Source: Gammaproteobacteria bacterium
Lineage (GTDB): Bacteria; Pseudomonadota; Gammaproteobacteria; DRLM01
Assembly (NCBI GenBank): GCA_011375345.1
Contig: DRLM01000017.1
Coordinates: 675 to 64,674, forward strand
Direction of reading: 5' to 3'
Length of the DNA: 64,000 nt
Shown: positions 13,890-35,964 of the stretch, piece by piece
Layout of the letters: every line of letters starts with the position of its first letter
Position numbering within the stretch: position 1 is the first letter of the stretch
Notes under the pieces: generated by a model
Database searches by the model: none
What the model saw: the letters and a program-made list of their open reading frames with translations, nothing else
What the model was told of the DNA's origin: nothing
Translations under genes and position numbers: made by a program

Positions 13890-13944
13890 GGTTGCAGTCT
13901 CTGGCAATGGGTGTCGCTTTCTCTCATCATGCAAAAGGGGCCGG

Positions 13945-14997: not shown

Positions 14998-15209
14998 GGT
15001 GTGGCGTTCCTGAAAGCGGAGCGGCGCCCCCCGCGGACGCGCCCGATCGAACCCAGTGCCGTCAAAGGGCAGGCATTATAAAGCATTGCCGGCGGCGGCG
15101 CCGAAGCCGTGTCAACCGATCCCGGCTGCGGCACGTTGAACCAGACACCTACACACGACACCGGCTTGCACCGGGTTTGACAACACTGAAACAAAACTGG
15201 AGGAGAACC

Positions 15210-17230: not shown

Positions 17231-18166
17231 TCACGGCCGCCCCGACCCCACCAGTTTGATCAACAGTTCCCGCGGATTGCGCTCCGGGCGGAACAGTTCC
17301 CGTTGCGCAATGGTGCCGAAGCGGGGGCTCAGTTGGTCCGCGATGAACCGGGCCTGAAACCGGGCCTCGGGGTGATAGTAGATAATCTCAGTGGTGTTCA
17401 CGCTGACATTGGCCACGTCCACGCCGCCCAGCGTAAAACCGCTTTCAGCCAGGGTGCGCACAATCCAGTCGCGGTCCCGCGACCAGGCTGTCGCGGCCGG
17501 ATCCAGGTGGATGGTGAGTTTGAACAACGAGTTTTGCAGACGCCTGGCGTCGTTGCGCGCCGCAGAGGCTTGCACGATGAGCTGCCGGGCCTGCGCCAGG
17601 CCGGCTTCCAGGCTTTGTTTCATTTGCGCCAGTTCCTCTTGCGCACTTTCGGGGTTCAGGCGGCGCAGCGCATCGCGCAGCGCTTCGAGGTTTTCTTTCT
17701 CCTGGCGCAGCGCCTTGTTCACGTCTTCGGCTTGCTGTCTGAACCGCTCAAAATCCCGTTCGAACTGTTCCGTTTTTGCTTTGACATCGGCCACGGAGGT
17801 TTCCGCCTCTTGCGCCACTGCCGCCACTTTGTTTTGCAGGCTCTGCATCCCTGCTTTAAAGTCGCCCGCCTGCCGGATGCCGAAAAACGCCAGCAAGGCC
17901 ATGCCCACACCCAGCAGCCAAAGCTGGCGCTTGGCCCAGGCCATGATCTTGACCTGGATGGTTTCCTGGGTTTCGGCCGCGACCAGGCGGGCCTCCCGTT
18001 TGAACTGGTCTGTGGCCTGGCGGGCAAGCTCATCGGCCAGCTTGGCCGCGGCACCCGGGTTTGCAAGCTGGCCGGCCGTGGCGGGCAGGGCTGCACCGCA
18101 CTGGCTGCAGTAGCGCTGGGTGGCGCTGATTTCCGCGTGGCAGTCGGGGCACTCCATGGGACGCAT
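17231..18166 (-). CDS. Zinc-ribbon / single-TM / coiled-coil protein with a C-terminal LytR_C-like domain
   Basis: N-terminal MECPDCHAEISATQRYCSQCG (CxxC...CxxC). TM helix LWLLGVGMALLAFFGI. Long coiled coil (QEAETSVADVKAKTEQFERDFERFRQQAEDVNKALRQEKENLEALRDAL). C-terminal ESGFTLGGVDVANVSVNTTEIIYYHPEARFQARFIADQL resembles LytR_C. Confidence 0.7.
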   Translation of the reverse strand: MRPMECPDCHAEISATQRYCSQCGAALPATAGQLANPGAAAKLADELARQATDQFKREARLVAAETQETIQVKIMAWAKRQLWLLGVGMALLAFFGIRQAGDFKAGMQSLQNKVAAVAQEAETSVADVKAKTEQFERDFERFRQQAEDVNKALRQEKENLEALRDALRRLNPESAQEELAQMKQSLEAGLAQARQLIVQASAARNDARRLQNSLFKLTIHLDPAATAWSRDRDWIVRTLAESGFTLGGVDVANVSVNTTEIIYYHPEARFQARFIADQLSPRFGTIAQRELFRPERNPRELLIKLVGSGRP

Positions 18167-18170: not shown

Positions 18171-19004
18171 TCAGCGGCTCAAGGCGCGCCGGCGCCCCTC
18201 GTGCACGATGGCGTCGTAGTCGTTTTTCAAGTATCCGATGCCGCGCAAATCCAGCAGCTTGGCCTCATGGCCGTGCCTGTCCAGCAGCATGTAGGCAACC
18301 GGCTGGGTGCTGACTTCGTTGGCTTTCTCGGTGGCTTGCGCAAGATAGACAAAGTGGTTCTTGTCGTAGTCCACCGAATAAACCGCGTGTTCTCTCATGC
18401 TGGTGTCCACAAAGATTTTGTATTTGACGGCGGACTCGCTGAGATGGGTCACCTGATTGGGCATGCGGCTCACAAACAAGTCAACGCGCACGACGATATG
18501 ACCCTGATCCAGCTCGGACAAGGTGTGCGGGTCCGCGGGCACCCAAAAATCGCCGGACAGCAGTATGGCCCCGGTTTTCTCCCGAATGAGGAAATAACGG
18601 CCAAAGCCCTCCAGCACAAACAGGTCCTGTTGCACGGGATCAATGTAAATGGTGAAGTTGATGAAGCCTTTGATATAGATGCGCTGCTGGATCAGTTCCT
18701 CGCGCAGCTCGTTGACGCCGTACAGATCTTTCAGCTGTTGCCAGTTCTGCGCCCCCATCATGCGGGAAAACACCTCGTCCATGCGGGCGTTTTGTTGGGC
18801 GATGCTGGGCAGCGGCAGATCCGGACTGACCGGGCCCGCTTCATCGCGGGGGGGCTCGAGAAACAAAAACACCTGCTTGTAAGACTCGGTCTGCGACACG
18901 CGTGCGATTTGTATGGGCACGAGTTTGGTCACAGCACACGCCGTCAACATGCATGGCAAGGCGAAGGCAACCAAAAGGGGAAGTCGTTTTGTGAATGGTC
19001 CCAC
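18171..19004 (-). CDS. Lipoprotein of unknown function, first gene of a two-gene operon with the Zn-ribbon protein
   Basis: GTG start. MGPFTKRLPLLVAFALPCMLTAC has lipobox LTAC. Its stop (18171) lies 5 nt from the downstream start at 18166. No recognisable domain. Confidence 0.65.
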   Translation of the reverse strand: MGPFTKRLPLLVAFALPCMLTACAVTKLVPIQIARVSQTESYKQVFLFLEPPRDEAGPVSPDLPLPSIAQQNARMDEVFSRMMGAQNWQQLKDLYGVNELREELIQQRIYIKGFINFTIYIDPVQQDLFVLEGFGRYFLIREKTGAILLSGDFWVPADPHTLSELDQGHIVVRVDLFVSRMPNQVTHLSESAVKYKIFVDTSMREHAVYSVDYDKNHFVYLAQATEKANEVSTQPVAYMLLDRHGHEAKLLDLRGIGYLKNDYDAIVHEGRRRALSR

Positions 19005-19230: not shown

Positions 19231-20043
19231 CTATGGCGGCCTGTTGGTGTTGTACGTCCAGGGGTTGCCCTGCGTGGCGTCGAAATAATCTTCCCAACGC
19301 ACGGCCTTGGCGTCGAAGCCACCGTCGAAATAGGTGTAGGTGCCATCCGAGCCGCCGGGCCCGCTGCCTGCGGTGTAGGTGTAGCGGCCACCGGTGACGG
19401 TGGAGTTCTGGACATCGCTGGCCATGTCGAAGCTGGCCGAACCGTCGGGCAGACTCATGGTGTTGGTGACGGTGCCGGCGGTGCTCATGTCGCTGTAGCT
19501 GCTGTTGCTCATGTCGATTTCGAACAGGGCCGTCACGTCTGGTGCATTGAGCATTTGGCTGATACGGGGTTTGGCATCGAATTTCCCTTTGTAAAACTCC
19601 ATCGCCACCTCGCCGTCGTTGAGAATCTGCCGGATCAACACCCGCTGCGGGTTGCCTTCGGCGTTGGCGGTGTTCACGCCGGTGCTGATATCCAGCGGGT
19701 CTGTGCCATTGCCGCCGCTGCCCCCCCCGTCACCGCCCACTGCGGAACCGGATCCTCCCTGAAAGCTGCCAAAGCCGTTTTGGATGTACACCTCCTGGAT
19801 GAAGCCTTCGGCGGGATCGCCGACGATCAGGTGATAGTAATTCAACCCGGTGTCAGGGTCCGTTACCACTTCCGGTGTCACCGTCACGGTGTCGTATAAA
19901 AAACGGGTGCCGTCACTGTCGATAAAAGCGCCGGTATTGTCGGGCATGAAGTTCAGGGTAAATTCCGCCGCGGCGGGTGGGAGACAGGTCAGTGTGACCA
20001 CCAGACAGGTACAACAGGGAAAAAGCGCAGTGCATGTCTTCAT
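19231..20043 (-). CDS. Secreted Gly/Ser/Thr/Asp-rich protein of unknown function
   Basis: Internal ATG 20043 gives MKTCTALFPCCTCLVVTLTCLPPAAA-EF (signal peptide). Mature protein is rich in G/S/T/D/N/Y (GGSGSAVGGDGGGSGGNGTD; TGGRYTYTAGSGPGGSDGTYTYFDGGFD). Divergent from the giant gene. Confidence 0.55.
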   Translation of the reverse strand: MKTCTALFPCCTCLVVTLTCLPPAAAEFTLNFMPDNTGAFIDSDGTRFLYDTVTVTPEVVTDPDTGLNYYHLIVGDPAEGFIQEVYIQNGFGSFQGGSGSAVGGDGGGSGGNGTDPLDISTGVNTANAEGNPQRVLIRQILNDGEVAMEFYKGKFDAKPRISQMLNAPDVTALFEIDMSNSSYSDMSTAGTVTNTMSLPDGSASFDMASDVQNSTVTGGRYTYTAGSGPGGSDGTYTYFDGGFDAKAVRWEDYFDATQGNPWTYNTNRPP

Positions 20044-20099
20044 ATGAGGGGGCTTGCCCATGGCCGAGTGCAACGACTGGGTTATCGGCAATTTATGCA

Positions 20100-20250
20100 A
20101 TCCCTTTAAGAACCCCTCTTCAGCTTTTGAATTTTCTCTAAATTTTTATAGATGCCGTCCGATATTCTCGGTACCGGCCGCGCCCCCTGGCGCGTTTGCC
20201 TGTCGCCACGGAGGGTTGATTTCCCAGTCGCTGACACCGAGGTGAAGTTA
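20100..20250. promoter_or_regulatory. AT-rich divergent promoter region for the giant surface-protein gene and the 19231..20043 gene
   Basis: A local GC drop (TTATGCAATCCCTTTAAGAACCCCTCTTCAGCTTTTGAATTTTCTCTAAATTTTTATAGATGCC) contains TTGAAT and TATAGA/TAGATG-like hexamers. It lies upstream of the GAGGTGA SD and ATG 20251. Confidence 0.35.
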
Positions 20251-23200
20251 ATGACGCGTGGCGCGCTTCGATTCCGTACACTGTCGATCCAAGACCCGCC
20301 TTCCCCCTGCCCCGCCTCCTCCACCTCCGGCACCCTCCGGATTGTTGCGCCGGCCCTGCTGTGCCTGCTCTTGCTTTGGAGCAGCGCCGCCGTGCGCGCC
20401 GGCGATTTTGTTCAAAGCGACTGGTCTGCTGGTATCCCCACCGACACCACGGCCTGCAGCGCTGCCGGTGGCACGTGGACGGGCAGCGAATGCGCCGCCG
20501 TGCATCCGGGCAATCAGACGGGCTGGAGTGCCTACAGCACCAAGGACAGCCTGCTCAATGTGACGGGCGGCGGCGCCGATTTGCAGCTGGGAACCACCGG
20601 TGACAAGGTGCAGGATGGAAGTGAAAGCGATTTCACTTTCAGCCGCAACACCGCAGCGCAGCACACCAGCAATTACGATTTTTCCGTAGGCGGCACGCTC
20701 TCCGCCACCACGGTCCGCAGCGGCGCCGTGCGCTTGAGCGAAACGGGGCACACGCCCTCCTGGGTCGCCAACAGCGCCTGGAACGCGCCCGACGTGGGCA
20801 GCTACAGCAAACCGGCCTTGGCCGATCTGGACAACGACGGTGACTACGATCTGATGCTGGGTTCCTCCAACGGCATTGTGTACGGCTACCGCAACACCGG
20901 CACTGATGCCACGCCCAGCTGGACTTCCCAGAGCAGCTGGAACGCGCCGGACATCGGCAGCTACGTGGCACCGGCCCTGGCGGACCTGGACGGTGACGGC
21001 GATCTCGACCTGATGATCGGCGAATCGGCGGGGCTGACCTTCGCCTACGAAAATACCGGCACCCTCAGCAACCCGGTGTGGAGCGCCAAACCGGAATGGA
21101 ATCTCAGCACCGATGTGGGGAGCTGGGCCGCCCCTGCCCTGGCGGATCTGGACGCTGACGGGGATTTCGATTTGCTGGTGGGCAACGTCGACGGGGTGAG
21201 CTATGCTTTTGAAAACACGGGCAACGCCTCGGCGCCCGTGTGGACCGCCAAGACCGCCTGGAACGCCCCCGACATCGGCGGCTATTCCGGCCCTGCCGCG
21301 GCCGATCTGGACGGTGACGGCGACGTCGACCTGATCATCGGCAGCTCCGGCGGGATCAGCTACGGCTATGCCAACAACGGCGACAACACCTGGACGGCCA
21401 ACACCGCCTGGGACACTCCCGATGCCGGCAGTTACGTGTATCCCGCCCTGGCGGATCTGGACGCCGACGGCGATCTGGACTTCCTCGCCGGCAACATAGG
21501 GGGTAACGCCACCGGCTACCGCAACGACGGCAGCAGCACTTATGCCGCTTCAGGCACGATGACCTCCCCGGTGATCGACACTGTCAGCCAGCTGGGCTTC
21601 ACCACGCTGGATTACAGCGCCACTGTGCCCGCCAACACCACCCTGAGCCTGGATGTGCGCGCCGGGGATACGGCCACCCCCGACGGGAGCTGGACCGCCT
21701 GGCTGACGGGCGTCGCCAACGGTGGCGACATTTCCACGCTGGGGACGCGGCGCTATGTGCAGTACCGGGCTGTGTTCGCCACCACCGACAGCAGCGCCAC
21801 CCCAACCCTCAAGGACATTACCTTCAACTACGCCAACTATCCCCTGGCCAGTGCCGTGGCCCGCTCGGGGGCCGGCAGCGCGGCGGCCGTGACGCTGGGA
21901 ATCAATTTCGCGCCGTCCATCACCGGCACCTACAACAGCCCCTATTCGGTGGTCAGCGTTCATGTCTCCGGCAATTACGCCTTCATCGCCGATGATTCCG
22001 GCAACTCGTTCTCGGCTCACCGCATCGTGGATATCTCCGACCCCGCCAGCCCCGTCCAGGTGGCCTACACTCAGCACGGCGCGCGCATCTGGGATGTGTT
22101 CGTGGCCGGCAGCTACGCCTACGTGGCTGCCACCGACAAGGGCCTGGCAGTGGTGGATATCTCCACCCCCAGTGCCCCGGTAACGGTGGGCACCGTGGAT
22201 ACTCCGGGCTGGGCCTGGGGGGTCTACGTGGAAGGCAGTTATGCTTATGTGGGGGATTACACCACCGGCGGCCTGCAGATCATTGATGTCAGCGACCCGG
22301 CCAACCCCACCATTGTCGGCAGCCTGGACACGCCGGGAGACGCACACCGGATTCATGTTTCCGGCAACTATGCCTATCTCACCGACGGCAGCTCCGGTTT
22401 GCAAATCATCGACGTGTCGGACAAGGCCAACCCCACCCTGGTGGCCACTTATTCCGATACCGTCAACGGCGTCTACGTCAAAGGCAACTACGCCTACATC
22501 ACCGGCACCGGCTTCAAGGTGCTGGACATTTCCAACCCGGCCTCCCCCACGCTGGTGGGAACGGCGGGGGGGGCCAGCGCCGGCCAGGGGGTGATCGTGG
22601 CGGGGGATTATGCCTACATGGCGGACACCAACTATTTGCGGGTGTTTGACATCAGCGAACCCACCACCCCCACCCAGGTAAGCAGTACCGCCGTGACGTA
22701 TATCAACGATGTGTACGTGGTGGGGAATCAGGCCTATGCCTCTGCGGCCAGCGCCGGCATCCACGCCATGTCCCTGGGCCCGTACAGCAACTCGGGATCA
22801 TTCACGTCCCAAATACTGGACGCCGGCCAGCATCTGGGCTGGACCACCCTGTCCGCCACCGCCGCGGTGCCGGCAGGCACCAGCTTGAGCTACGATGTGC
22901 GCGCCGGCGCCAGCGCCACTCCCGACGGCAGCTGGACAGCGTGGATCACCGGCGTGGCGGACGGTGGCGATATTTCCGCCCTGGGCACCCTCCGCTACAT
23001 CCAGTACCGCGCCAACTTCGCCACGAGCGACACCAGCGTCACACCGTCGCTGGATGCCATGGCGCTGAACTTCAACCACTACGCTTACAGTGCCAGCCTC
23101 ATTTCCTCGCCCTTCAACACCACTGCTGCCGGCAATCTGCTGGACGGCCTGGTCTGGACCGAAACGCTGCCCCCAGGCACCGATGTACGCATCGAGCTGC

Positions 23201-26200
23201 GTACCACCCCTGACAGCAGCGGCGCCCCCGGCACCTGGAGCGCCTGGCTGGGTCCCGATGATGCCGCCGGCAGCTACTGGAACTCCGGCAACACCAGTGC
23301 CGGCGGCTGCAGTGGCAGCGGCAGCGTGGTCTGCACGGTCATGGCCGACAGCCAGCGGGACGGCCTGGCGGACCAGTGGTTTCAGTACCGCGTCACGCTC
23401 ACTTCCGATGGCAGCGCCACCCCCACCCTGGCCAGCCTCACCAGCAGCTACGGCAGCAGCGGCAGCAGCGGCATCACGGTGACCCCCACCGGCGGCCTGG
23501 CCACCTCGGAAAGCGGGGGCACAGCCAGTTTCACCGTGGTGCTGGACAGCGCCCCCGGTGCCGATGTCACCCTCGGCATGTACAGCAGCGACACCACCGA
23601 GGGCACGGTCGCGCCCTCTTCGCTGACGTTCACCCCGGCCGACTGGAGCACACCCCAGACCGTTACCATCACCGGAGTCGACGACTTTTTCGACGATGGC
23701 GACGTTGCCTATTCCATCGTCACCGCCGCCAGCGTCAGCAGCGACCCCGCGTTCGACGACATCAACGCCGCCGATGTCAGCATCAGCAACGTGGACAACG
23801 ACACTGCCGGCATCAATGTCTCCCCCACCTCGGGTCTAATCACGACGGAAGCCGGGGCCAGCGCCAGCTTCACCGTGGTGCTGAACACCCAGCCCACGGC
23901 GGACGTGACCCTGGCCCTGTCCAGCTCCAACACGGCCGAGGGCACGGTTGCGCCCGGCTCGCTGACCTTCACCCCGGCCGACTGGAGCACGCCCCAGACC
24001 GTTACCGTCACCGGGGTGGATGAAAACGTCATTGACGGCGATCAGGCCTATACTGTCGTCACTGCCGCCGCCACCAGCGGCGACAGCCAATACAGCGGCT
24101 TCAACGCTGCTGACGTGGCCGTGACCAACAGCGATGACGACACCGCCGCCGTCACCGTGAGCCCCGCCACGCTGACGGTGAGCGAGGCGGGCGCCTTCGC
24201 CCCTTTCACGGTGACCCTCACCAGCCAGCCCACGGCCAATGTCACCATGATGCTGTCCAGCTCCGACAGCAGCGAGGGCATGGTGCTGCCCTTTGCCATG
24301 ACCTTCACCCCCAGCAACTGGAACACACCCCAGACGGCGACGGTGTTCGGGGTAAACGACCAACTGACAGACGGCGACCAGACTTTCGCCATTGTCACCT
24401 CCGCCTTCACCAGCGCTGACAGCAACTTCAACGGCGTCAACCCCGCCGACATCACCGTCACCAACACCGACGACGATACGTATTCCATCATCGTCACCCC
24501 CAGTTCGGGCCTGGTCACCACCGAGAACGGCGGCAGCGCGGAATTTAAAATCGCCCTGGGCACCCAGCCCACGGCGGATGTAACCATCAACCTCAGCAGC
24601 AGCGATACCAGCGAAGGCTATGTCACCCCGTCGTCCATCACCTTCAGCCCCAGCGATATCGTCAGCCGGGGCAAGCCGGTGAAAGTCATCGGCGTAAATG
24701 ACGCCCAGACCGACGGTGACCAAAGCTACTCGGTGATCACCGCCCCCGCGGTCAGCGCCGACAGCAATTTCAACGGCCTGGACGGCGCCGATGTGACGGT
24801 CACCAACCTGGACAATGCCCGCGACCTCATTCGGCTGGAAGGCAACCAGTACGGCGCGTTGTTTGGCTACAGCGCGGCGGCCGCTGATGTCAACGGCGAC
24901 GGTTATCAGGATCTGCTGGTCGGGGCTTACGGCAGCAATACCGTTTATGCGTACCTGGGCTCTCCCAGCGGTTATTCCCTGACCCCCGACTGGAAGGCGG
25001 TGGGCAGCGGCAGTTTCGGTTATGCCGTGGCCAGCGCCGGGGACATCAATAATGACGGCTATGACGATCTGCTGGTGGGCGCGCTGCAATATTACAACGG
25101 CCAGTCCACCGAAGGCGCCGCTTTTCTGTTCCTCGGATCCGCCGCCGGCCTGCCTGATGCAGACAGCGACGGCACTGCCCAATTGTCCGACGCCGCCTGG
25201 GCCTTCGAAAGCGACCAGACCGGTGCCAACGCCGGCGCCGCGGTTGCGGGAGCGGGGGATGTCAACGGCGACGGCTACGACGACATCCTCATCGGGGCCC
25301 AGTACTACGACAACGGCGAATCCAACGAAGGCGCCGCCTTTTTCTTCTATGGCAGCGCCACCGGTCCGGCCGATGCCGACAGCGACGGCATCGCTCGCCC
25401 CGGCGACGCCAACTGGACCTTTGAGAGCGACTATGCCAACGGCTATGCCGGCGCCGCCCTTGCCGGCGCTGGCGATCTCAACAACGACGGCAAGGCCGAT
25501 ATCATCATCGGCATTCAACGCTACAGCAACGGCCAGACCTACGAGGGCCGCGCTGTGGTCTTCTATGGCAGCGCCACCGGCCTCGCGGACGCTGACAGCG
25601 ATGGTACCGCCCGCATGAGCGATGCCGACTGGGCGGCGGAAATCGACCAAACCAGCGCCTACTTCGGTTATGCCGTGGCCGGCGCTGGTGATGTCAACGG
25701 CGACAACTACGACGACATTATCGTGGGAGCATATCTCTGGGATGCCGGTACCACCAATGAGGGCGGGGCCTTCGTCTTCCACGGTTCCGCCAGCGGCCTG
25801 CCCGACGGCGATGGCGATGGCCTGGCCAGGTTCAGCGATGCCAACTGGTCCGCCAGCAGCAGCCAACTCTATGCTGAACTGGGCCGCGCCGTGGCCACCG
25901 TCGGCGACTTCAACGGCGACGGCTACAGCGACGTCATCGTGGCCACCCCCGACTACGATGAAAGCTACGCCAGCGTCAATATCGACGAGGGCCGTGCCGC
26001 CGTTTACCTGGGCGCCGCGTCGGGCCTGGCCGGCAGCGCCTCCTGGACCGTTGCCGGTGAGCAGGCCAGTGCGCTCATGGGCTACGCCCTCGGTGGCCTG
26101 GGCGATCTCAACAGCGACGGCCAGGACGATGTTTTCGTGAGTGCATACCAATGGGAGTCCACCAGCGCCGAGAGCAATGAAGGGGCCGTCTTTGTCTACC

Positions 26201-29196
26201 TGAGCAAACCCCAGTCACCCGCCATCACCGTCACCCCCACCTCCGGTCTGCAAACCTCGGAGAGCGGCACCAGCGCCACCTTTACCGTGGCCCTGAACCT
26301 GCCGCCCACGGGCGATGTCACCATCGGCTTGTCCAGCTCCGACACCGGCGAAGGCACGGTCTCCCCCGGCGCGCTCACCTTTACCCCCACCGACTGGTAT
26401 CTGCCCCAGACGGTCACCGTCACCGGCGTGGATGACAGCGCTTTCGACGATGCTGTGGCCTACACTATCGTCACCGCCGCCGCCAGCAGCACCGACACCC
26501 GCTACAACGGCATCAACCCCAGCGACGTGGCGGTGACCAACAGCGACGACGAGCAGGCCGTCGTCAGCGTGAGCGCCACCGACGGAAGCGCGGCCGAAGA
26601 GGATTTGAGCACTGCCACCTTCACCCTTTCCCGCACCGGCCCCACCAGCGCGCCGCTGACGGTGAATTACACCGTGGGCGGCGATGCCACCCCAGGGAGC
26701 GATTATGTGGCCTTGGGCGGCAGCGTCACCATCCCGGCCGGGAGCGCCTCGGCCACCGTGACCGTCACGCCCCTGGACGACGCCATCGCCGAAGGCAGCG
26801 AGGACGTGTGGCTCAACATCAGCACCGCCGCCGCCTATGCCCGGGGCAGCACCTGGAGCACCAAGGTCACCATCACCGATGACGAGACCGGCGGTATCAC
26901 CGTCACCCCCACTTCCGGCCTGCAAACCCATGAAAGCGGTGGCACGGCCACCTTCACGGTGGTGTTGGACCAGCCGCCCGCGGCCGACGTGACTCTGGCC
27001 TTGCAGAGTTCCGATACCACCGAAGGCGCGGTGGTGCCCACTTCCCTTACGTTCACCCCGGCCAACTGGAACGTGGCCCAGACTGTCACCGTGGTGGGCG
27101 TGGACGACACCGGTTTGGACGGCGACGTGGCCTATACGGTCTACACCGGCGCCGCGGTGAGCACGGTGAGCGTCTACAACGGTCTGAACCCCGCCGATGT
27201 GGCGCTGACCAATCTGGACAACGAGGCCATCAACACCGTGAGCGTCACCGCCGCCACCGCCAGTCTGGCCGAAGCGGGAGCGCCAGCGGTGGCCTTCGTC
27301 GTGAGCCGCAGCGGCGATACCGGCGCCGCCCTGACGGTAAACTACAGCACCGGCGGCACGGCCACCTCCGGTGGCGATTACACCGCCTTAAGCGGCAGCG
27401 TGACCCTGGGCGCCGGCAACGACAGCGCCACCCTCACCCTGACGCCCCTGGACGACGGTACGGTCGAAGGCAATGAAACGGTGGTGCTCAGCTTAAGCAG
27501 CGCCGCCGCCTACCTGGTGGGTAAACCGGCATCGGCCACCGTGACGCTGGTGGACGACGAACAGAACACTCCCCCGGTGGTGAACTTCGGGCTGGATCAA
27601 ACCGTGGCGGAAGGCACCACTGCCACCGTCACCGCCGTGCTCAGCGGCCCGGCCCTGGCCTATCCGGTGACGGTGCCCTACACCGTCGGCGGCACGGCCA
27701 CCAACCCCGCTGACCACGACGCGGCCAACGGCAGCATCACCATCAGTTCGGGACTCAGTGGCAGCACCAGCTTCACCGTGGTGGACGACGGCGCCGGGGA
27801 AGCCGACGAAACGGTCATTTTCACCATGGGCACACCCACCAATGCCGCCGCCGGCGGGCGCACCACCCACACCGTCACCCTGACGGAACTCAATGTGGCC
27901 CCCAAGGTGAAGCTGGCCGCCGCCCAGGGCGGGGCGGGCACGCGGCTGGTGGTCAGCGGCGGCGGCAATGTGACCGTCACCGCCACGGTGAGCGATCCCA
28001 ACCCGGCGGACAGCCACAGCTACGACTGGAGCCGCAGCAACAACAATCTGGTGGACATTACCGACGGTGATCCGGCCACTTTTGTATTCGACCCCACCAG
28101 TCTCTCCCCGGGCTTTTACGCCGTGCGGGTGGACGTGACCGACGACGGCTCCCCTGCCCAGACCGGCCAGGCAGAGCTGCTGCTGCAAGTGGCGGCCAGC
28201 GCACCGGCCTTGTCTGCCGGCACCGACAGCGACGGCGACGGCATCATGGACGACGCCGAATCCTTCGACGACAGCGACGGCGACGGCATCCCCGATTACC
28301 TGGACGCCGCCACATTGGCCTCCCACGAGCTGCAGGTGCTGTCCGGCGAGGCGGCCAGCTACGTCATGCGCACGGAGCCGGGCCTGAGCCTGCGCCTCGG
28401 CGAGGTGTCCTTTGCGGCAGCCGCCGACGGGGCCGAGGTGAGCAGCACCGATATCGCCAGCTACGGTGGCGGTGAAGGCCAGCCGGGCAGCGCCCCGGCC
28501 ACCGACACGGTGGCCAATGTGGGCGGTTATTTCGACTTCGAAATCGGCGGCCTGACCCAGGCGGGGCAGTCGGCGCGGGTGGTCATTCCCCTGCTGGCGG
28601 CCATTCCCGAAGGGGGCACGTACCGCAAATACGACCCGGTCACCGGCTGGGCGGACTTCACCGTGGACAGCGCCAACGCCGTGGCCTCCGCCCCCGGCGC
28701 TCCCGGTGCCTGCCCCCTGCCGGGGGATGCGGCCTACACCAGCGGCCTCGGCAGCGGCCACTACTGTCTGCAGCTCACCCTTCAGGATGGCGGCCCCAAC
28801 GACGCCGACGGCGCGGCCAACTACGTCATTGCTGATCCGGGCGAACTGGCCCTCAAAGCCGTGACGGAGGACGCAGGACCGCTCGCCGCAGATGACAACA
28901 GTGCAGTGGACAATGGCACTGGGGGCACCGGGGGCACCGGGGGCACCGGGGGCACCGGGAGTGACAATACCCCGGCCCAAGACAACCGCCCCGACGCCGC
29001 CGCAACGGGCCGCACCGGCGGTGGCGCGCTTGGTCTCTTCGGCCTGCTCCTGCTGGCCATGGGTGGGCTGTGGACCCGGCAGGCTCCCAGGGCTGAGCCA
29101 GGTGGGGCCACCGCTGGGCCCCGCCTGGAAAAGCCTCTATACTTGGGCGCTGCTTGTTGGGGGAAGGGAGCCGGGAACGATGCGACTGAACAATAA
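20251..29196 (+). CDS. Giant (2981 aa) secreted/cell-surface multidomain protein with FG-GAP propeller x2, LVIVD propeller, Calx-beta and Ig/cadherin-like repeats, TSP3 repeats and a C-terminal hydrophobic sorting-like segment
   Basis: GAGGTGA SD, then ATG 20251 (the ORF-track start 20152 is an upstream in-frame extension). Long signal peptide ...IVAPALLCLLLLWSSAAVRA-GD. Repeated WNAPD(I/V)GSY..PALADLD(G/A)DGD(L/F)DL(M/L)(I/V)G units are FG-GAP. LQIIDVSDPANPTIVGSLDTPG units are LVIVD. TVNYTVGGDATPGSDYVALGGSVTIPAGSASATVTVTPLDD is Calx-beta. TDSDGDGIMDDAESFDDSDGDGIPDYLD is TSP3-like. The C-terminus is GRTGGGALGLFGLLLLAMGGLWTRQ. Confidence 0.85.
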   Translation: MTRGALRFRTLSIQDPPSPCPASSTSGTLRIVAPALLCLLLLWSSAAVRAGDFVQSDWSAGIPTDTTACSAAGGTWTGSECAAVHPGNQTGWSAYSTKDSLLNVTGGGADLQLGTTGDKVQDGSESDFTFSRNTAAQHTSNYDFSVGGTLSATTVRSGAVRLSETGHTPSWVANSAWNAPDVGSYSKPALADLDNDGDYDLMLGSSNGIVYGYRNTGTDATPSWTSQSSWNAPDIGSYVAPALADLDGDGDLDLMIGESAGLTFAYENTGTLSNPVWSAKPEWNLSTDVGSWAAPALADLDADGDFDLLVGNVDGVSYAFENTGNASAPVWTAKTAWNAPDIGGYSGPAAADLDGDGDVDLIIGSSGGISYGYANNGDNTWTANTAWDTPDAGSYVYPALADLDADGDLDFLAGNIGGNATGYRNDGSSTYAASGTMTSPVIDTVSQLGFTTLDYSATVPANTTLSLDVRAGDTATPDGSWTAWLTGVANGGDISTLGTRRYVQYRAVFATTDSSATPTLKDITFNYANYPLASAVARSGAGSAAAVTLGINFAPSITGTYNSPYSVVSVHVSGNYAFIADDSGNSFSAHRIVDISDPASPVQVAYTQHGARIWDVFVAGSYAYVAATDKGLAVVDISTPSAPVTVGTVDTPGWAWGVYVEGSYAYVGDYTTGGLQIIDVSDPANPTIVGSLDTPGDAHRIHVSGNYAYLTDGSSGLQIIDVSDKANPTLVATYSDTVNGVYVKGNYAYITGTGFKVLDISNPASPTLVGTAGGASAGQGVIVAGDYAYMADTNYLRVFDISEPTTPTQVSSTAVTYINDVYVVGNQAYASAASAGIHAMSLGPYSNSGSFTSQILDAGQHLGWTTLSATAAVPAGTSLSYDVRAGASATPDGSWTAWITGVADGGDISALGTLRYIQYRANFATSDTSVTPSLDAMALNFNHYAYSASLISSPFNTTAAGNLLDGLVWTETLPPGTDVRIELRTTPDSSGAPGTWSAWLGPDDAAGSYWNSGNTSAGGCSGSGSVVCTVMADSQRDGLADQWFQYRVTLTSDGSATPTLASLTSSYGSSGSSGITVTPTGGLATSESGGTASFTVVLDSAPGADVTLGMYSSDTTEGTVAPSSLTFTPADWSTPQTVTITGVDDFFDDGDVAYSIVTAASVSSDPAFDDINAADVSISNVDNDTAGINVSPTSGLITTEAGASASFTVVLNTQPTADVTLALSSSNTAEGTVAPGSLTFTPADWSTPQTVTVTGVDENVIDGDQAYTVVTAAATSGDSQYSGFNAADVAVTNSDDDTAAVTVSPATLTVSEAGAFAPFTVTLTSQPTANVTMMLSSSDSSEGMVLPFAMTFTPSNWNTPQTATVFGVNDQLTDGDQTFAIVTSAFTSADSNFNGVNPADITVTNTDDDTYSIIVTPSSGLVTTENGGSAEFKIALGTQPTADVTINLSSSDTSEGYVTPSSITFSPSDIVSRGKPVKVIGVNDAQTDGDQSYSVITAPAVSADSNFNGLDGADVTVTNLDNARDLIRLEGNQYGALFGYSAAAADVNGDGYQDLLVGAYGSNTVYAYLGSPSGYSLTPDWKAVGSGSFGYAVASAGDINNDGYDDLLVGALQYYNGQSTEGAAFLFLGSAAGLPDADSDGTAQLSDAAWAFESDQTGANAGAAVAGAGDVNGDGYDDILIGAQYYDNGESNEGAAFFFYGSATGPADADSDGIARPGDANWTFESDYANGYAGAALAGAGDLNNDGKADIIIGIQRYSNGQTYEGRAVVFYGSATGLADADSDGTARMSDADWAAEIDQTSAYFGYAVAGAGDVNGDNYDDIIVGAYLWDAGTTNEGGAFVFHGSASGLPDGDGDGLARFSDANWSASSSQLYAELGRAVATVGDFNGDGYSDVIVATPDYDESYASVNIDEGRAAVYLGAASGLAGSASWTVAGEQASALMGYALGGLGDLNSDGQDDVFVSAYQWESTSAESNEGAVFVYLSKPQSPAITVTPTSGLQTSESGTSATFTVALNLPPTGDVTIGLSSSDTGEGTVSPGALTFTPTDWYLPQTVTVTGVDDSAFDDAVAYTIVTAAASSTDTRYNGINPSDVAVTNSDDEQAVVSVSATDGSAAEEDLSTATFTLSRTGPTSAPLTVNYTVGGDATPGSDYVALGGSVTIPAGSASATVTVTPLDDAIAEGSEDVWLNISTAAAYARGSTWSTKVTITDDETGGITVTPTSGLQTHESGGTATFTVVLDQPPAADVTLALQSSDTTEGAVVPTSLTFTPANWNVAQTVTVVGVDDTGLDGDVAYTVYTGAAVSTVSVYNGLNPADVALTNLDNEAINTVSVTAATASLAEAGAPAVAFVVSRSGDTGAALTVNYSTGGTATSGGDYTALSGSVTLGAGNDSATLTLTPLDDGTVEGNETVVLSLSSAAAYLVGKPASATVTLVDDEQNTPPVVNFGLDQTVAEGTTATVTAVLSGPALAYPVTVPYTVGGTATNPADHDAANGSITISSGLSGSTSFTVVDDGAGEADETVIFTMGTPTNAAAGGRTTHTVTLTELNVAPKVKLAAAQGGAGTRLVVSGGGNVTVTATVSDPNPADSHSYDWSRSNNNLVDITDGDPATFVFDPTSLSPGFYAVRVDVTDDGSPAQTGQAELLLQVAASAPALSAGTDSDGDGIMDDAESFDDSDGDGIPDYLDAATLASHELQVLSGEAASYVMRTEPGLSLRLGEVSFAAAADGAEVSSTDIASYGGGEGQPGSAPATDTVANVGGYFDFEIGGLTQAGQSARVVIPLLAAIPEGGTYRKYDPVTGWADFTVDSANAVASAPGAPGACPLPGDAAYTSGLGSGHYCLQLTLQDGGPNDADGAANYVIADPGELALKAVTEDAGPLAADDNSAVDNGTGGTGGTGGTGGTGSDNTPAQDNRPDAAATGRTGGGALGLFGLLLLAMGGLWTRQAPRAEPGGATAGPRLEKPLYLGAACWGKGAGNDATEQ
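20750..21540 (+). other. Domain region: N-terminal FG-GAP (integrin-alpha-like) beta-propeller, about six blades with DxDxDG calcium-binding loops
   Basis: About six tandem units, e.g. SWNAPDIGSYVAPALADLDGDGDLDLMIGES, each of ~60 aa. Confidence 0.7.
21940..22780 (+). other. Domain region: LVIVD-repeat beta-propeller
   Basis: Repeats such as HVSGNYAFIADDSGN...RIVDISDPASP, GLAVVDISTPSAP, GGLQIIDVSDPANP, SGLQIIDVSDKANP and FKVLDISNPASP. Confidence 0.7.
24830..26180 (+). other. Domain region: second FG-GAP beta-propeller (about seven blades)
   Basis: Repeats like FGYSAAAADVNGDGYQDLLVGAYG and GAAVAGAGDVNGDGYDDILIGAQYYDNGESNEGAAFFFYGSATG, a classic integrin-alpha FG-GAP/Ca-loop pattern. Confidence 0.75.
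26560..27890 (+). other. Domain region: tandem Calx-beta-like domains interleaved with ~100-aa Ig/cadherin-like repeats
   Basis: LTVNYTVGGDATPGSDYVALGGSVTIPAGSASATVTVTPLDDAIAEGSEDVWL and ALTVNYSTGGTATSGGDYTALSGSVTLGAGNDSATLTLTPLDDGTVEGNETVVL are Calx-beta. The GITVTPTSGLQTxESGGTATFTVVLDxxP...TFTPxxWxxPQTVTVxGVDD repeats (also 23470..24830) are Ig/cadherin-like. Confidence 0.7.
28915..28959 (+). repeat. Perfect 9-bp tandem repeat (GGCAC[C/T]GGG)x5 encoding (GTG)5 linker
   Basis: ggcactggg ggcaccggg ggcaccggg ggcaccggg ggcaccggg read directly from the sequence. In frame (9 bp) within the giant gene, just upstream of the C-terminal hydrophobic segment. Confidence 0.9.
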
Positions 29197-29659
29197 CACC
29201 CTGGGACTGGCCTTGGCGGCACTGGTATCAAGCCTGCCGGCAATGGCTATTGGGGCGCCGGACGATCAAAATGACGGACGGAGCTGGCACTACAGTTTCG
29301 ACCACACTTACAGTCACGGCATGCCTTCTTCACGGATACCCCCCCAGCCCAGCTGGTTCAGCGGCCGTTTCGGTCTCGCCCGGGGCGTGGGCGAAGCGAT
29401 CCGCCTCCACCGCCTGACCCAGTGGGACAATGGCGAGCGCAGCTATGCCTATTACATCGGCGATGTCCTGTATGCCTGGTACGACCCCTGGGGCCTGGAG
29501 TTGAGCATCCGCGACCTGCAAGACACCACCCGGCCGGTGTGCCACTGGGATCCCCTCAGCCGCTTCCAGCGCGACAGCAGCGCGCCCCGGGAACACTGCG
29601 AAACACTGCTGCACAAGCTGGCAGCAACGCTGGCCAGAAGCGGGCCTGCGCCGCTTTGA
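29180..29659 (+). CDS. Small secreted protein (159 aa) of unknown function, overlapping the 3' end of the giant gene (likely co-transcribed)
   Basis: GGGAAGGGAG SD, then ATG 29180. Signal peptide MRLNNNTLGLALAALVSSLPAMA-IG. Its start lies 17 nt inside the giant ORF. No recognisable domain. Confidence 0.55.
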   Translation: MRLNNNTLGLALAALVSSLPAMAIGAPDDQNDGRSWHYSFDHTYSHGMPSSRIPPQPSWFSGRFGLARGVGEAIRLHRLTQWDNGERSYAYYIGDVLYAWYDPWGLELSIRDLQDTTRPVCHWDPLSRFQRDSSAPREHCETLLHKLAATLARSGPAPL

Positions 29660-29726: not shown

Positions 29727-30050
29727 TCAATCATCCCAGCGGTCATCGCGCAACTGCACCACGCCGTTTTCCACCCGCACGGGAAACGTGTGGATGGGCT
29801 CGAAGGCGGGGGGCGTCAGGGCGGCGCCGGTTTTGATGGAAAAGCGCGCGCCGTGGCGGGGGCAGATGATCTGGTCACCTTCTAACCTGCCGCAGGCGAT
29901 CTCAGCGTAATCGTGGGTACACATGTCTTCGATGGCGTAGTACCCGCCGTCCAGCCCGTATACCGCCACCCGGGTGTCCTCCAGGGCCACCACGCGGTGG
30001 CCACCAGGTGGAAGCTCGGCCGCCGGGCACACATCGATCCAGTCTGACAT
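29727..30050 (-). CDS. Rieske [2Fe-2S] domain ferredoxin-like protein, last gene of the suf operon
   Basis: MCTHDYAEIACG...ICPRHGARF has Rieske CxH...CxxH ligands. Followed by a palindromic terminator TGAGGCGGCCGCCTCA at ~29706..29722. Confidence 0.8.
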   Translation of the reverse strand: MSDWIDVCPAAELPPGGHRVVALEDTRVAVYGLDGGYYAIEDMCTHDYAEIACGRLEGDQIICPRHGARFSIKTGAALTPPAFEPIHTFPVRVENGVVQLRDDRWDD

Positions 30051-30608
30051 TTACAATAAACCCGATTGCAATTTGGCCGCCTCCGACATGCGGCTTTGGT
30101 CCCAGGCCGGCTCGAACACCAGCTCCACCCGCACTTCACTCACCCCGGGCACAGCGCGGGCTTTTTCTTCCACTTCCTGCTGCAGGATGGGGCCCATGCC
30201 GCAGCCGGGGGCGGTGAGGGTCATCTGGATGTCCACCCGGTAGCCGCCCTCGTCGCGGGGGCTGATTTGCAGCCCGTAAATCAAACCCAGCTCGACAATG
30301 TTGATGGGGATTTCCGGGTCATAGCAGGTCTTGAGCTGGTCCCAGATGGCGTTCTCATCGGGTGGCCCTGCATGGGCGGGCGCCGGTTTTTCCGGTGCGG
30401 CGCCGGCCTGCTTGCCCAGGGCGTCGGCGTCCTGGGCGGCGATGCGCACCAGACTGCCTTCCACATAGCAGGTGTAGCTGCCGCCCAGGGATTGGGTGAT
30501 GGTCACGGCCTGCCCGGCGGGCAGGGTGATTTCATTGCCAAAGGGTATCAACACCGCCTTGCAGTCGCGGCTGAGAGTGACGATTTCATTGCTACGCATG
30601 GTGGTCAT
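30051..30608 (-). CDS. sufT: SufT-like Fe-S assembly protein (DUF59/MIP18 family) with an N-terminal extra domain
   Basis: The C-terminal half IWDQLKTCYDPEIPINIVELGLIY...MTLTAPGCGMG...VELVFEPAWD is DUF59. Confidence 0.7.
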   Translation of the reverse strand: MTTMRSNEIVTLSRDCKAVLIPFGNEITLPAGQAVTITQSLGGSYTCYVEGSLVRIAAQDADALGKQAGAAPEKPAPAHAGPPDENAIWDQLKTCYDPEIPINIVELGLIYGLQISPRDEGGYRVDIQMTLTAPGCGMGPILQQEVEEKARAVPGVSEVRVELVFEPAWDQSRMSEAAKLQSGLL

Positions 30609-31045
30609 TCCGTCGTCACCGTCTCACCGGTGTTTTTCAGCGCCGCTTCCAGAGTGTGCCAGGCCAGGGTGGCGCATTTGACCCGCGCCGGGTAGTCACG
30701 CACGCCGGCCAGCACGCTGAGCTTGCCCAGCCCGCCCACATCCCCGTCCTGGGTCACGGCCCGGTGGAAACGATGAAACAGGGCTTCGGCGTCTTTGATG
30801 TTCATGCCCTTGAGGCGTTCGCTCATGAGCGAGGCCGAGGCGGTGGAAATGGCGCAGCCCTGCCCTTCGAACTTCACGTCTTCAATCACATCGCCGTCCA
30901 CCTTGAGATACAAAACAATGTCGTCGCCACACAGGGGGTTGTGACCCACGGCGCGGCGATTGGCGTCCTCCATGCGGCCGCGGTTGCGGGGGTTGCGGTT
31001 GTGGTCGAAGATGACCTCCTGGTAGAGTTCGCGCAAGTCGGACAT
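30605..31045 (-). CDS. sufU: SUF-system NifU/IscU-like Fe-S scaffold (SufU-type)
   Basis: NPLCGDDIVLYLKV...GQGCAISTASASLMSE...VKCATLAWHTL shows the conserved Cys triad of SufU/IscU. Confidence 0.8.
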   Translation of the reverse strand: MSDLRELYQEVIFDHNRNPRNRGRMEDANRRAVGHNPLCGDDIVLYLKVDGDVIEDVKFEGQGCAISTASASLMSERLKGMNIKDAEALFHRFHRAVTQDGDVGGLGKLSVLAGVRDYPARVKCATLAWHTLEAALKNTGETVTTE

Positions 31046-32298
31046 CAGCCAAACACCTTGATGACCTTGCGCACGGCGGCAAACAATCGGTCCACGTCCG
31101 CGCGGGTGTTGTACAAGCCGAACGAGGCGCGGGCGGTGGCGGGCACCTGGAAATGCTGCATCACCGGCATGGCACAGTGATGGCCGGTACGGATGGCCAC
31201 CCCTTCGTGGTCGAGGATGGTGCCGATGTCGTGGGGATGCACTGTCTCCAGCACGAAAGACAAAATCCCCGCTTTTTGCGCCGCCGTGCCAATAAGTTTC
31301 AAACCGGGAATTTCCCGCGCCTGCCCGGTGGCGTAGCAGAGCAACTCGTCTTCGTGAGCGGCGATGTTGCTCAGGCCGATGTTGTCCAGATAGTCGATGG
31401 CCACCCCTAAGCCGATGGCACCGCTGATGTGGGGCGTGCCCGCTTCGAATTTATAGGGCAGGCTGTTGTATTCGGTTTTCTCGAACGTGACCAGCCGGAT
31501 CATGTCGCCGCCCCCCTGGTAAGGGGGCATGGCCTCCAGCAAGCCGGTTTTGCCATAGAGCACGCCGATGCCAGTGGGGCCATACATCTTGTGACCGGAA
31601 AAAGTGTAAAAATCGCAGCCCAGGGCCTGCACGTCCACCATGGTGTGCGGCACCGCCTGGGCGCCATCGACCAGCACCGGCACAGCCATCGCGTGCGCAG
31701 CCTCGATGATCTCCGCCACGGGGTTGACGGTGCCCAGGGAATTGGACACCTGCACCACGGCAACGAGCCTGGTGCGCGGCGACAGCAGGCGGTGAAAGTC
31801 GTCCAGCACCAGCTCGCCCTTGTCATTGATGGGCACCACCTGCAAACGGGCACCGGTCTGCTCGCACACCATTTGCCAGGGCACGATGTTGGCGTGGTGT
31901 TCCATTTCGGTGATGAGGATTTCATCGCCTGCTTGCAGCCGCGGCCGGGCATAGCTTTGCGCCACCAAATTGATGGCCTCGGTAGCGCTGCGCACGAAGA
32001 TGATTTCTTTGTCACTCTCGGCATTGATAAAACGCCGCACTTTCTCCCGCGCATCCTCGAAGGCGTCGGTGGCACGCTGGCTCAAGGTGTGCACGCCGCG
32101 GTGGATGTTGGCGTTGTCTTTGCGATAGTACTCGGCCATCGCTTCAATCACCGCCACGGGTTTTTGCGTGGTTGCCCCGTTGTCCAGATACACCAGCGGC
32201 TGGCCGTGCACGGATTGGTGCAGAATGGGAAAATCCTCGCGCAGGCGCGTCACGTCATAAGTGTGTCCGGCCAGGGGGCGGGTGGATGCGCTGCTCAT
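31045..32298 (-). CDS. sufS: Cysteine desulfurase SufS (class II aminotransferase, PLP)
   Basis: ...HHANIVPWQ...FSGHKMYGPTGIGVLYGK...RTGHHCAMP matches SufS/CsdA. Confidence 0.9.
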   Translation of the reverse strand: MSSASTRPLAGHTYDVTRLREDFPILHQSVHGQPLVYLDNGATTQKPVAVIEAMAEYYRKDNANIHRGVHTLSQRATDAFEDAREKVRRFINAESDKEIIFVRSATEAINLVAQSYARPRLQAGDEILITEMEHHANIVPWQMVCEQTGARLQVVPINDKGELVLDDFHRLLSPRTRLVAVVQVSNSLGTVNPVAEIIEAAHAMAVPVLVDGAQAVPHTMVDVQALGCDFYTFSGHKMYGPTGIGVLYGKTGLLEAMPPYQGGGDMIRLVTFEKTEYNSLPYKFEAGTPHISGAIGLGVAIDYLDNIGLSNIAAHEDELLCYATGQAREIPGLKLIGTAAQKAGILSFVLETVHPHDIGTILDHEGVAIRTGHHCAMPVMQHFQVPATARASFGLYNTRADVDRLFAAVRKVIKVFG

Positions 32299-33629: not shown

Positions 33630-34378
33630 GCGGCAGCCCCGGACTCGATCCAGCCGTAACCGTTTTGCTCCAGTTCATGGGCGAGGTCGGCACCACCGGA
33701 CTTAACGATGCGGCCGCCCGCCAAAACGTGCACGTGATCGGGCTCGATGTAACTGAGCAGGCGTTGGTAGTGGGTGACCAGCACAAAGGCACGTCCGGGG
33801 CTGCGCAGGGCGTTGATGCCCTCGGAGACGATTTTCAAGGCGTCGATGTCCAGCCCCGAATCGGTCTCGTCCAGAATCGCCAGGGATGGCTCCAGCAGGG
33901 CCATTTGCAGGATCTCGTTGCGTTTTTTTTCGCCGCCGGAGAAGCCTTCGTTCACCGCGCGGTGCAAAAATTGCTCGTTCATTTCCACCAGTTTGATCTT
34001 CTCCCGCACCAGAGCAAGAAAATCCATGGCGTCCAGCTCCGCCTCCCCCCGGTGTTTGCGCACGGCGTTGACCGCGGCCTTGAGCAAATAAATGTTGCTT
34101 ACCCCGGGAATCTCCACGGGATATTGGAAGGCCAGAAAAATCCCTTCCCGCGCCCGCTCTTCCGGTGCCAGGTCCAACAGATTCGCACCTTTGTAAATGA
34201 CTTCGCCGGCGGTGATCTCATAGCCCTCACGCCCCGCCAGCACATTGGACAGTGTGCTTTTGCCAGAGCCGTTGGGTCCCATGATGGCGTGCACCTCGCC
34301 GGCGTTTACTTCCAGATTGATGCCTTTGAGTATGGGCTTGCCGTCTACCGCGGCGTGAAGATCTTTAATGCTCAACAT
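33626..34378 (-). CDS. sufC: Fe-S cluster assembly ATPase SufC
   Basis: [49 protein letters not shown]...[32 protein letters not shown] carries Walker A, signature and Walker B motifs. Confidence 0.92.
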
Positions 34379-34486
34379 GATATTTGCTCGTGCTAGTAAT
34401 TGATGCGGTTTGAAAGGGCGCGCGTCCTCGGCCTCCCCCTTCGGGAAAGGGGGCCCGAGGCCTGCGGCTTGCGACGCGGCTTGTTG

Positions 34487-35932: not shown

Positions 35933-35964
35933 GGGTTAACCTGTACGTCGCGTGGAATCAAGGT

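Follow-up and report, generated by a model that had tools for sequence, protein, structure and literature searches.

A giant multi-propeller protein with a GlyGly-CTERM-like C-terminus and its genetically linked small partner in uncultured marine Gammaproteobacteria

Surface localisation of VesB in Vibrio cholerae requires the C-terminal sorting signal GlyGly-CTERM together with a rhombosortase and a type II secretion system (T2SS); by these means the protein gains a lipid-type modification at its C-terminus and is retained at the surface (PMC6219818). An unstructured linker joins the signal to its cargo in VesB, and a second secretion signal is required for translocation across the outer membrane; VesC, a further GlyGly-CTERM protein of V. 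cholerae, is released by a cut inside its unstructured linker (PMC13393428). The GlyGly-CTERM motif is without Cys, unlike MYXO-CTERM (PMC3237569). Dedicated chaperones of T2SS effectors are described, as in the Acinetobacter pairs CpaA/CpaB and LipA/LipB (PMC4713064). Bacterial integrin-type propellers, tandem ones included, have been reported together with a VCBS supercluster that is centred on prokaryotes (PMC3192720, PMC8023676). The present report concerns a very large predicted surface protein, hereafter the giant, and a small protein encoded next to it, the partner, on a 64,000-nt stretch of contig DRLM01000017.1 from an uncultured gammaproteobacterium. The whole stretch is referred to as the window, and all positions are those of the window.

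Taken by itself, the giant is one more uncharacterised multi-domain surface protein, the parts of which are all known. What makes the locus new is its conserved partner, fused to the giant in some relatives, where the polypeptide continues past a C-terminal sorting signal. Throughout the family the giant and the partner of ~270 amino acids (aa) are tightly linked genetically, as divergent, tandem or fused genes. The window holds them as a divergent pair:

19231..20043, minus strand: partner gene, 270 aa, predicted secreted product with a signal peptide ending AAA before EFTLNF, divergent from the giant gene
20044..20250, no strand: divergent intergenic region between partner and giant, 207 bp, with an AT-rich stretch (read directly)
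20251..29196, plus strand: giant gene, 2,981 aa and stop codon

The giant gene is real and intact. It lies in an uninterrupted open reading frame (ORF; 20152..29196, plus strand) and starts with an ATG at 20251, just 3' of a Shine-Dalgarno-like GAGG motif. Its GC content at third codon positions (GC3) of 0.83 is typical of coding sequence in the window, and there is no break in GC content between the gene and its flanks. An earlier reading of this DNA from the letters alone, hereafter the sequence-only reading, had its coordinates and its length of 2,981 aa exactly right and overlooked the conserved gene of the partner just upstream. In composition the giant favours A, G, T, S and D, with little K and only nine Cys. 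Scans for promoters and terminators at both ends of the gene returned zero matches, and no match to the sigma-70 consensus was present in the 207-bp intergenic region.

The partner is 100% identical to P0121, the "hypothetical protein ENJ19_01425" of a Gammaproteobacteria metagenome-assembled genome (MAG), on a contig of 66.7 kb, and is the sole member of its family in the window. It had no match in Pfam, NCBIfam, the PDB sequences or solved folds. An exhaustive profile search gathered 367 clusters (50% identity), mostly stand-alone proteins of 280-380 aa; for 279 of the clusters the E value is below 1e-30. The AlphaFold2 model is moderate (predicted local distance difference test, pLDDT, 60.7; predicted template modelling score, pTM, 0.52), with a better-defined core in the form of an up-and-down beta-meander and a mature N-terminus (EFxLNFxPD; predicted mature protein aa 27-270) that is unstructured yet highly conserved. 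Judged by its sequence and model, the partner is a member of an undescribed family of small, putatively secreted and beta-rich proteins.

Related loci were collected with the close partner alignment A2. At all giant-homolog loci examined the partner is adjacent to the giant or fused to it. By BLASTP the window partner is 46-52% identical to the unannotated genes that lie directly upstream of giant orthologs at loci L001 and L002, the latter with two partner copies, and divergent pairs also occur in L012, L015, L016 and L017. A large ORF stands beside the partner at 19 of 27 metagenome loci. Seventeen of these are giant-like (8 divergent, at least 5 tandem, 3 with the giant first or fused); in the other two, L041 and L045, the large ORF (at least 3,301 aa and at least 1,343 aa) begins less than 100 bp from the partner. 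In the paralogs of 4,300 aa a same-strand partner gene lies 37-58 bp upstream, in an operon-like arrangement (E = 6e-101 and 4e-89). A distant partner paralog (L019) adjoins an unrelated Kelch/Ig-type protein of 871 aa, which also ends in GGG, a helix and basic residues.

In at least 10 protein clusters the partner follows the sorting signal as part of one polypeptide and retains a signal peptide of its own. Over its full length it aligns to a C-terminal extension of ~300 aa in six giant ortholog clusters (P0017, P0019, P0022, P0024, P0027 and P0031), at 37-42% identity and E values of 1e-36 to 1e-64. The extension starts after the GlyGly-CTERM helix and basic cluster and begins with its own signal-peptide-like helix; two independent assemblies both show the fused ORF without interruption. 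Four further C-terminal fusions were found in differently built large proteins with Calx-beta or Laminin_G_3 domains. The junction is common to all four: a beta-module, GGGG(S/A) with a helix and basic residues, a second helix ending ...A.A before ..LNF, and the partner domain. This unnamed beta-module, in 2-7 copies, is the common hallmark of partner-associated giants, some of which, not all, also have the N-terminal cap and the choice-of-anchor U domain dealt with below.

Two loci show other arrangements. In L043 (2..4069, plus strand) a partner lies between the GlyGly-CTERM end of one giant and the start of the next, all on one strand, which looks like an unfused precursor of the fused form. 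In L010 (8823..9273, minus strand), from the Thiotrichaceae-labelled MAG NORP103, a frameshifted 3' remnant of a giant lies between a LysR gene and an intact partner. The remnant consists of the end of a choice-of-anchor U domain (77% identical to P0039) and a GlyGly-CTERM in another frame; the giant can thus be lost while the partner is kept.

The C-terminal part of the giant, on the plus strand, is made up as follows:

28318..28875, plus strand: choice-of-anchor U domain, anchor-proximal, aa 2690-2875 (NCBIfam NF041766, 54.8 bits against a cutoff of 32)
28876..29016, plus strand: low-complexity linker with (GTG)5, aa 2876-2922 (read directly)
29017..29094, plus strand: GlyGly-CTERM-like sorting signal GGGALGLFGLLLLAMGGLWTRQAPR, aa 2923-2948 (best match TIGR03501, below cutoff)
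29095..29196, plus strand: atypical 33-aa tail beyond the basic residues, aa 2949-2981, and stop codon (read directly)

A putative rhombosortase-type, GlyGly-CTERM-like sorting signal is suggested by the order of Gly run, hydrophobic helix and basic residues. The tail has GGGAL and a hydrophobic stretch of 19 residues, with no Cys. Hydropathy gives the giant only two hydrophobic segments, aa 24-50 and aa 2922-2941, a predicted N-terminal signal and the C-terminal helix, with no other membrane segment, as is the rule for GlyGly-CTERM proteins. Alignment of the ends of ~45 relatives shows the same succession of a choice-of-anchor U core (...DGGPNDxDG...DPG...), a variable low-complexity linker, (S/G)GGG[A/T/V], ~18 hydrophobic residues and an R/K cluster. 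Orthologs carry the canonical tripartite form; the tail of P0020 scores 17.7 bits against TIGR03501, above the cutoff of 15.5, and that of P0012 scores 14.8. The linker varies among orthologs in length and composition, and ortholog tails beyond the basic cluster are mostly 5-22 aa long. MYXO-CTERM and JDVT-CTERM were considered as identities for the tail and rejected, as it has no Cys and its scores are sub-threshold.

The choice-of-anchor U domain is followed by the linker and then by the sorting-type tail. It has a Cys pair at 2821/2839 and is ~61% identical across orthologs. Such domains take their NCBIfam name from their position beside cleavable sorting signals. The sequence-only reading had noticed a terminal domain of ~200 aa and a hydrophobic C-terminus; both are present, their identities as choice-of-anchor U domain and sorting signal having been missed.

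Domains of the giant were determined by scanning the full-length protein, as well as ten segments of it, against Pfam and NCBIfam; internal repeats were mapped by BLAST of fragments against the whole protein. The domain order read from the letters was essentially borne out by these scans, the repeat map and motif counts, with three corrections given below. The N-terminal part and the head consist of:

20251..20403, plus strand: predicted signal peptide, aa 1-51, in which a long basic n-region precedes h-region IVAPALLCLLLLWSSAAVRA, the strongest hydropathy peak of the protein
20404..20748, plus strand: N-terminal cap with two Cys, aa 52-166, motif FxQxDW...C...C...HPGxQTGW conserved in alignment A3
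20749..21540, plus strand: VCBS/FG-GAP_3 propeller 1, aa 167-430, five DxDxDG Ca2+ loops, five blades in the AlphaFold model
21547..21843, plus strand: unnamed beta-sandwich module A, aa 433-531 (profile A4, E = 1.7e-47), high pLDDT
21940..22791, plus strand: LVIVD beta-propeller, aa 564-847 (Pfam LVIVD, PF08309, E = 3.8e-67, 6 stretches)
22789..23454, plus strand: beta-sandwich modules B (aa 847-946) and C (aa 948-1068) (profile A4, E = 1.6e-43 and 2.1e-20)

The signal peptide has a basic n-region of ~30 residues (aa 1-30, 20251..20340) ahead of its hydrophobic core. The long n-region is also found in, and conserved across, orthologs of the giant. It is reminiscent of the extended signal peptides that very large proteins of type V secretion possess; no Pfam match to the extended signal peptide region (ESPR) was obtained at the N-terminus. 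The cap is mostly of low confidence in the AlphaFold2 model, and its profile reappears before each VCBS propeller of paralog P0006.

Propeller 1 matches Pfam FG-GAP_3/VCBS over aa 167-430 (E = 1.5e-34). A direct motif count gives five DxDxDG loops, and the blades are 40-57% identical to each other. Integrin-alpha-type propellers have seven blades, and the AlphaFold model of propeller 1 has five. Of the two integrin-alpha-like propellers proposed in the sequence-only reading, propeller 2 (seven blades, FG-GAP) stands and propeller 1 (VCBS/FG-GAP_3, modelled as 5-bladed) does not. The LVIVD propeller recognised there is confirmed by the Pfam scan, at 221.8 bits against a cutoff of 20.2, and shows seven G-x-Y-A-Y repeat units by direct count. 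A module of ~95 aa had also been said to be repeated three times, and copies A, B and C are supported by the repeat map and by profile A4: aa 441-539 and aa 855-953 (modules A and B) are 57.6% identical, and the third copy, aa 948-1068, is diverged and has a Cys pair at 1020/1028. Profile A4 had no meaningful match in Pfam or the PDB sequences, and an indexed homology search with it gave two matches only. Cap, VCBS propeller (five blades), LVIVD propeller (seven units) and the three beta-sandwich modules together make up the distal head. The ligand of the giant would probably be a glycan or a surface; as lectins are among the VCBS relatives (PMC8023676), glycan binding would be a reasonable guess.

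Between head and choice-of-anchor U domain the following parts are found:

23470..24831, plus strand: four divergent Calx-beta-type repeats of ~113 aa, aa 1074-1527, mutually 48-64% identical
24832..26205, plus strand: integrin-type FG-GAP propeller 2, seven blades, aa 1528-1985 (Pfam FG-GAP, E = 2.7e-45, 7 stretches)
26215..27888, plus strand: stalk of Calx-like, Calx-beta, Calx-like, Calx-beta and Calx-beta domains, aa 1989-2546 (Pfam and repeat map)
27892..28185, plus strand: PKD-like Ig domain, aa 2548-2645 (K319L-like_PKD 26.8 bits against a cutoff of 27, borderline; PKD E = 3.4e-4)
28225..28305, plus strand: two DxDxDG Ca2+-binding motifs, aa 2659-2685, at aa 2659 and 2674

The stalk is built of nine Calx-beta-type domains, broken by the 7-bladed integrin-type FG-GAP propeller. 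Pfam Calx-beta (PF03160) matches three copies over aa 2105-2546 (E = 1.3e-34, 119.2 bits). Six copies of the repeat of ~113 aa are present (aa 1074-1527, four copies; aa 1991-2104 and aa 2215-2325, one each). One copy is above the Pfam Calx-beta cutoff (30.4 bits against 27), and these repeats, taken for Ig/cadherin-like in the sequence-only reading, are instead divergent Calx-beta domains. Propeller 2 has the seven FG-GAP repeats with DxDxDG Ca2+ loops of the integrin-alpha type, with a repeat period of 72 aa; direct count gives seven Ca-loop motifs and four inserts. The inserts, PDADSDG(T/I)A, are regularly spaced between the canonical loops (aa 1636-1858, 25156..25826) and may add Ca2+ sites. 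The proposed TSP3-like repeats amount to just the two DxDxDG motifs, Pfam TSP_3 (PF02412) giving E = 0.15 and 12.2 bits against a cutoff of 25. That the giant is rich in Ca2+-binding motifs holds, and is compatible with adhesion or ligand binding.

An indexed search found ~30 full-length ortholog clusters of the giant (~95% coverage, 40-54% identity, 2,870-3,270 aa) with the same Pfam set, from uncultured Gammaproteobacteria, and a paralogous class of 4,300-4,500 aa without LVIVD. All relatives come from metagenomes or MAGs and are unnamed or labelled "hypothetical" or "FG-GAP-like repeat-containing protein". The same search showed FG-GAP/VCBS joined with LVIVD in other proteins too. Looked up by its exact sequence, the giant itself had no entry. 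The architecture, held to be unusual on first reading, is shared by these ~30 clusters, its combination of propellers occurs elsewhere, and tandem propellers are already described (PMC3192720, PMC8023676); it is elaborate, not unique.

The reading favoured here, with a chance somewhat above even, is that the giant is a Sec-exported, rhombosortase-sorted, calcium-stabilised and adhesin-like surface fibre of an uncultured marine gammaproteobacterium, provided with a dedicated accessory partner. It is drawn from sequence features. Sec would export the giant, and its C-terminal helix would keep it for a time in the inner membrane. A rhombosortase-type intramembrane protease would cut at the Gly motif, and the giant would be re-attached to a lipid-like moiety, as for VesB. 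Transport to the cell surface would follow, with the T2SS as its probable route. Anchored by its C-terminus, it would project the propeller head outward on its stalk to a ligand. Signal peptidase would free the partner into the periplasm, fused versions included. In these, a hairpin in the membrane would arise from the two helices; with rhombosortase cutting it on one side and signal peptidase on the other, the same two periplasmic products would result as from separate genes. Identical products from fused variants would argue for selection on co-translation and stoichiometry, i.e., for a partner that acts on or binds the giant. The partner might act stoichiometrically, as a dedicated escort, chaperone or anchoring factor for sorting or secretion.

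Several points weigh against this reading. The tail of the giant itself scores 11.8 and 13.1 bits against TIGR03501, below the cutoff of 15.5, and its basic residues are sparse (R2944 and R2948), with 33 more residues after them. No rhombosortase (TIGR03902 family) or T2SS gene was found in the scanned ORFs of the window or in 757 kb of window and related loci, and no rhombosortase-like small polytopic ORF was found in the window and 48 loci. A T2SS substrate of ~300 kDa would be unusually large. All members of the giant and partner families are unnamed or "hypothetical". In a metH clade (L006-L008, L022, L028, L031, L032) the retrieved DNA contains no giant. The partner of this clade, ~50-54% identical to that of the window, is located downstream of metH, immediately so in L007 and L008; these genomes either encode the giant at some other place or have a partner with a separate role. 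In L013, L014, L018 and L040 the partner is likewise without a giant within 10 kb or in the retrieved DNA.

The sub-cutoff tail with its atypical cytoplasmic extension, and the absence of rhombosortase and T2SS from the scanned window and related-locus DNA, would also suit a C-terminal helix that is a permanent inner-membrane anchor, the giant then working in the periplasm or envelope with neither rhombosortase processing nor surface display. This is quite improbable. A fibre of ~20 domains, as judged from the domain count, would be too big for a Gram-negative periplasm, and the pattern of Gly run, helix and basic residues after the choice-of-anchor domain is kept in the ~45 relatives, one of which exceeds the model cutoff. 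Choice-of-anchor domains are, moreover, neighbours of cleavable sorting signals. A giant that is sorted likewise and then shed, e.g., by linker cleavage, would be a released protein of the extracellular matrix or a biofilm. VesC, released by cleavage in its unstructured linker, offers a model for this (PMC13393428), and in the giant the low-complexity linker is long and differs among family members. However, Pfam scans gave no protease domain for autoprocessing in the giant, and the sequence does not distinguish retention from release; shedding is considered unlikely. Very improbable is an enzymatic giant with propeller 1 as a glycoside hydrolase-like catalytic domain (GH43/GH32 fold) and the remainder as carbohydrate-binding and spacer modules. 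The sequence identity is only ~10%, and Pfam gives FG-GAP_3 and not any glycoside hydrolase family. As the VCBS blades are near-identical (40-57%), each with a DxDxDG Ca2+ loop, there is no differentiated catalytic Asp/Glu/Asp set. The glycoside-hydrolase identity was rejected, the likeness reflecting blade number only.

As to the role of the partner under the favoured reading of a sorted surface fibre, it is proposed tentatively that the partner family might be an unrecognised dedicated component of the GlyGly-CTERM sorting and display pathway for giants, either as an escort in the periplasm, where it would shield the newly lipidated C-terminus, or as a dock in the outer membrane. A partner that is no sorting or secretion factor is conceivable and regarded as doubtful; it would then belong to the mature structure as a functional subunit, such as a tip, a cap or a co-factor in ligand binding, or would be a beta-barrel of the outer membrane that docks the fibre. 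Were the sorting role true, the polyproteins of cargo, sorting signal, second signal peptide and partner would be natural Rosetta-stone fusions, and a sorting system hitherto known as protease and T2SS only would gain a further component in the partner. The pairing and its recurrent fusion give a testable handle on how very large proteins with rhombosortase-type signals are escorted to the Gram-negative surface and retained there, a step beyond GlyGly-CTERM that is said to require a secondary signal (PMC13393428). Two unnamed sequence families are defined, the partner and the beta-module of ~100 aa that marks partner-associated giants. Both come from uncultured marine Gammaproteobacteria, and no surface-attachment factors had been identified among the relatives seen.

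Among the neighbouring genes, an ORF of 159 aa (29180..29659, plus strand) begins 17 nt ahead of the stop codon of the giant gene, which suggests translational coupling; its signal peptide, MRLNNNTLGLALAALVSSLPAMA, is clear. Its product had no Pfam match and no BLASTP match among the compared neighbour genes of ortholog loci; as a candidate degenerate copy of the partner it was rejected, there being no partner-family match. Convergent with the giant gene, and facing its 3' end, is a complete suf operon (regulator, sufB, sufC, sufD, sufS, sufU and sufT; 29727..36411, minus strand), after which comes a gene for a Rieske-type ferredoxin. The sufS product scores high against an encapsulin-cargo cysteine desulfurase model, yet under the cutoff of that model.

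An envelope-gene cluster with DUF4382, lipoprotein-like and zinc-ribbon genes lies upstream of the partner. It contains two paralogous DUF4382-containing proteins (10918..12624 and 15177..17141, both plus strand), the latter with a lipoprotein-like N-terminus (...LLGAC), a zinc-ribbon/coiled-coil membrane protein (17231..18166, minus strand) and an unannotated lipoprotein-like gene of 277 aa (18171..19004, minus strand). The genes at 15177, 17231 and 18171 had no BLASTP match among the compared neighbours in L001, L002 and L004. Two adjacent paralogous genes of FGE-sulfatase/EgtB-C-terminal-like type are also present (12897..13997 and 13945..14997, both minus strand). Genes with FGE-sulfatase domains recur in L001, at up to 10 kb from the giant, and in L018, at up to 10 kb from a partner paralog; this recurrence may be coincidence.

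Compared with known systems, the giant shares single traits with several. Cell-surface proteins with LVIVD repeats were reportedly treated by Adindla et al. in 2007 (as cited in PMC3192720). The strong PF08309 match (E = 3.8e-67) and a predicted beta-propeller in a surface protein are common to these and the giant, in which, unlike them, LVIVD is one of three propellers in a sorted protein. Propeller 2, through its seven FG-GAP repeats and their DxDxDG loops, resembles the bacterial integrin-type propellers, and propeller 1 shares its type of blade with the VCBS supercluster (PMC3192720, PMC8023676). Unlike in that supercluster, propeller 1 is modelled with five blades that all have DxDxDG, whereas the group of the 5-bladed relative tachylectin-2 is without the Asp-rich loop (PMC8023676), and the giant adds the LVIVD propeller.

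Giant adhesins of type I secretion systems (T1SS; LapA, MpIBP, SiiE and BapA type) are similar in their several thousand residues, their Ca2+-binding Ig/Calx-like stalk repeats and their ligand-binding modules at one end. In contrast to them, the giant is without RTX nonapeptide repeats (no PF00353 match), and no T1SS genes occur among the neighbours scanned (suf operon, FGE-sulfatase-like, lipoprotein-like and housekeeping genes). It has a Sec-type N-terminal signal and, in place of an N-terminal retention module, a putative C-terminal sorting-signal anchor. The Sec-type, non-RTX export proposed in the sequence-only reading agrees with these observations and with the presence of one N-terminal and one C-terminal hydrophobic segment.

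With the T2SS proteins of the GlyGly-CTERM/rhombosortase system (VesB, VesA, VesC and Xds of Vibrio cholerae; ExeM of Shewanella), the giant shares the predicted signal peptide, the unstructured linker, the Cys-free Gly-rich motif, the single helix and the basic residues after it, which in the giant are sparse and not terminal; both are gammaproteobacterial. The available portions of the GlyGly-CTERM literature (including PMC3237569) mention neither a partner protein nor a polypeptide beyond the sorting signal. The known cargoes are enzymes, whereas the giant is a multi-propeller fibre of ~300 kDa, and its tail is below the curated cutoff and has an extension of 33 aa.

Genes of T2SS chaperones adjoin those of their effectors. 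Unlike these chaperones, which show no sequence similarity and no confirmed structural similarity to it, the partner has a cleavable-looking signal peptide (AxA before EF) and not a membrane anchor. A secreted protein that relies on a small accessory protein would nevertheless be common to both, and the T2SS effector/chaperone pairs (PMC4713064) are the closest precedent and a model for the pair of giant and partner.

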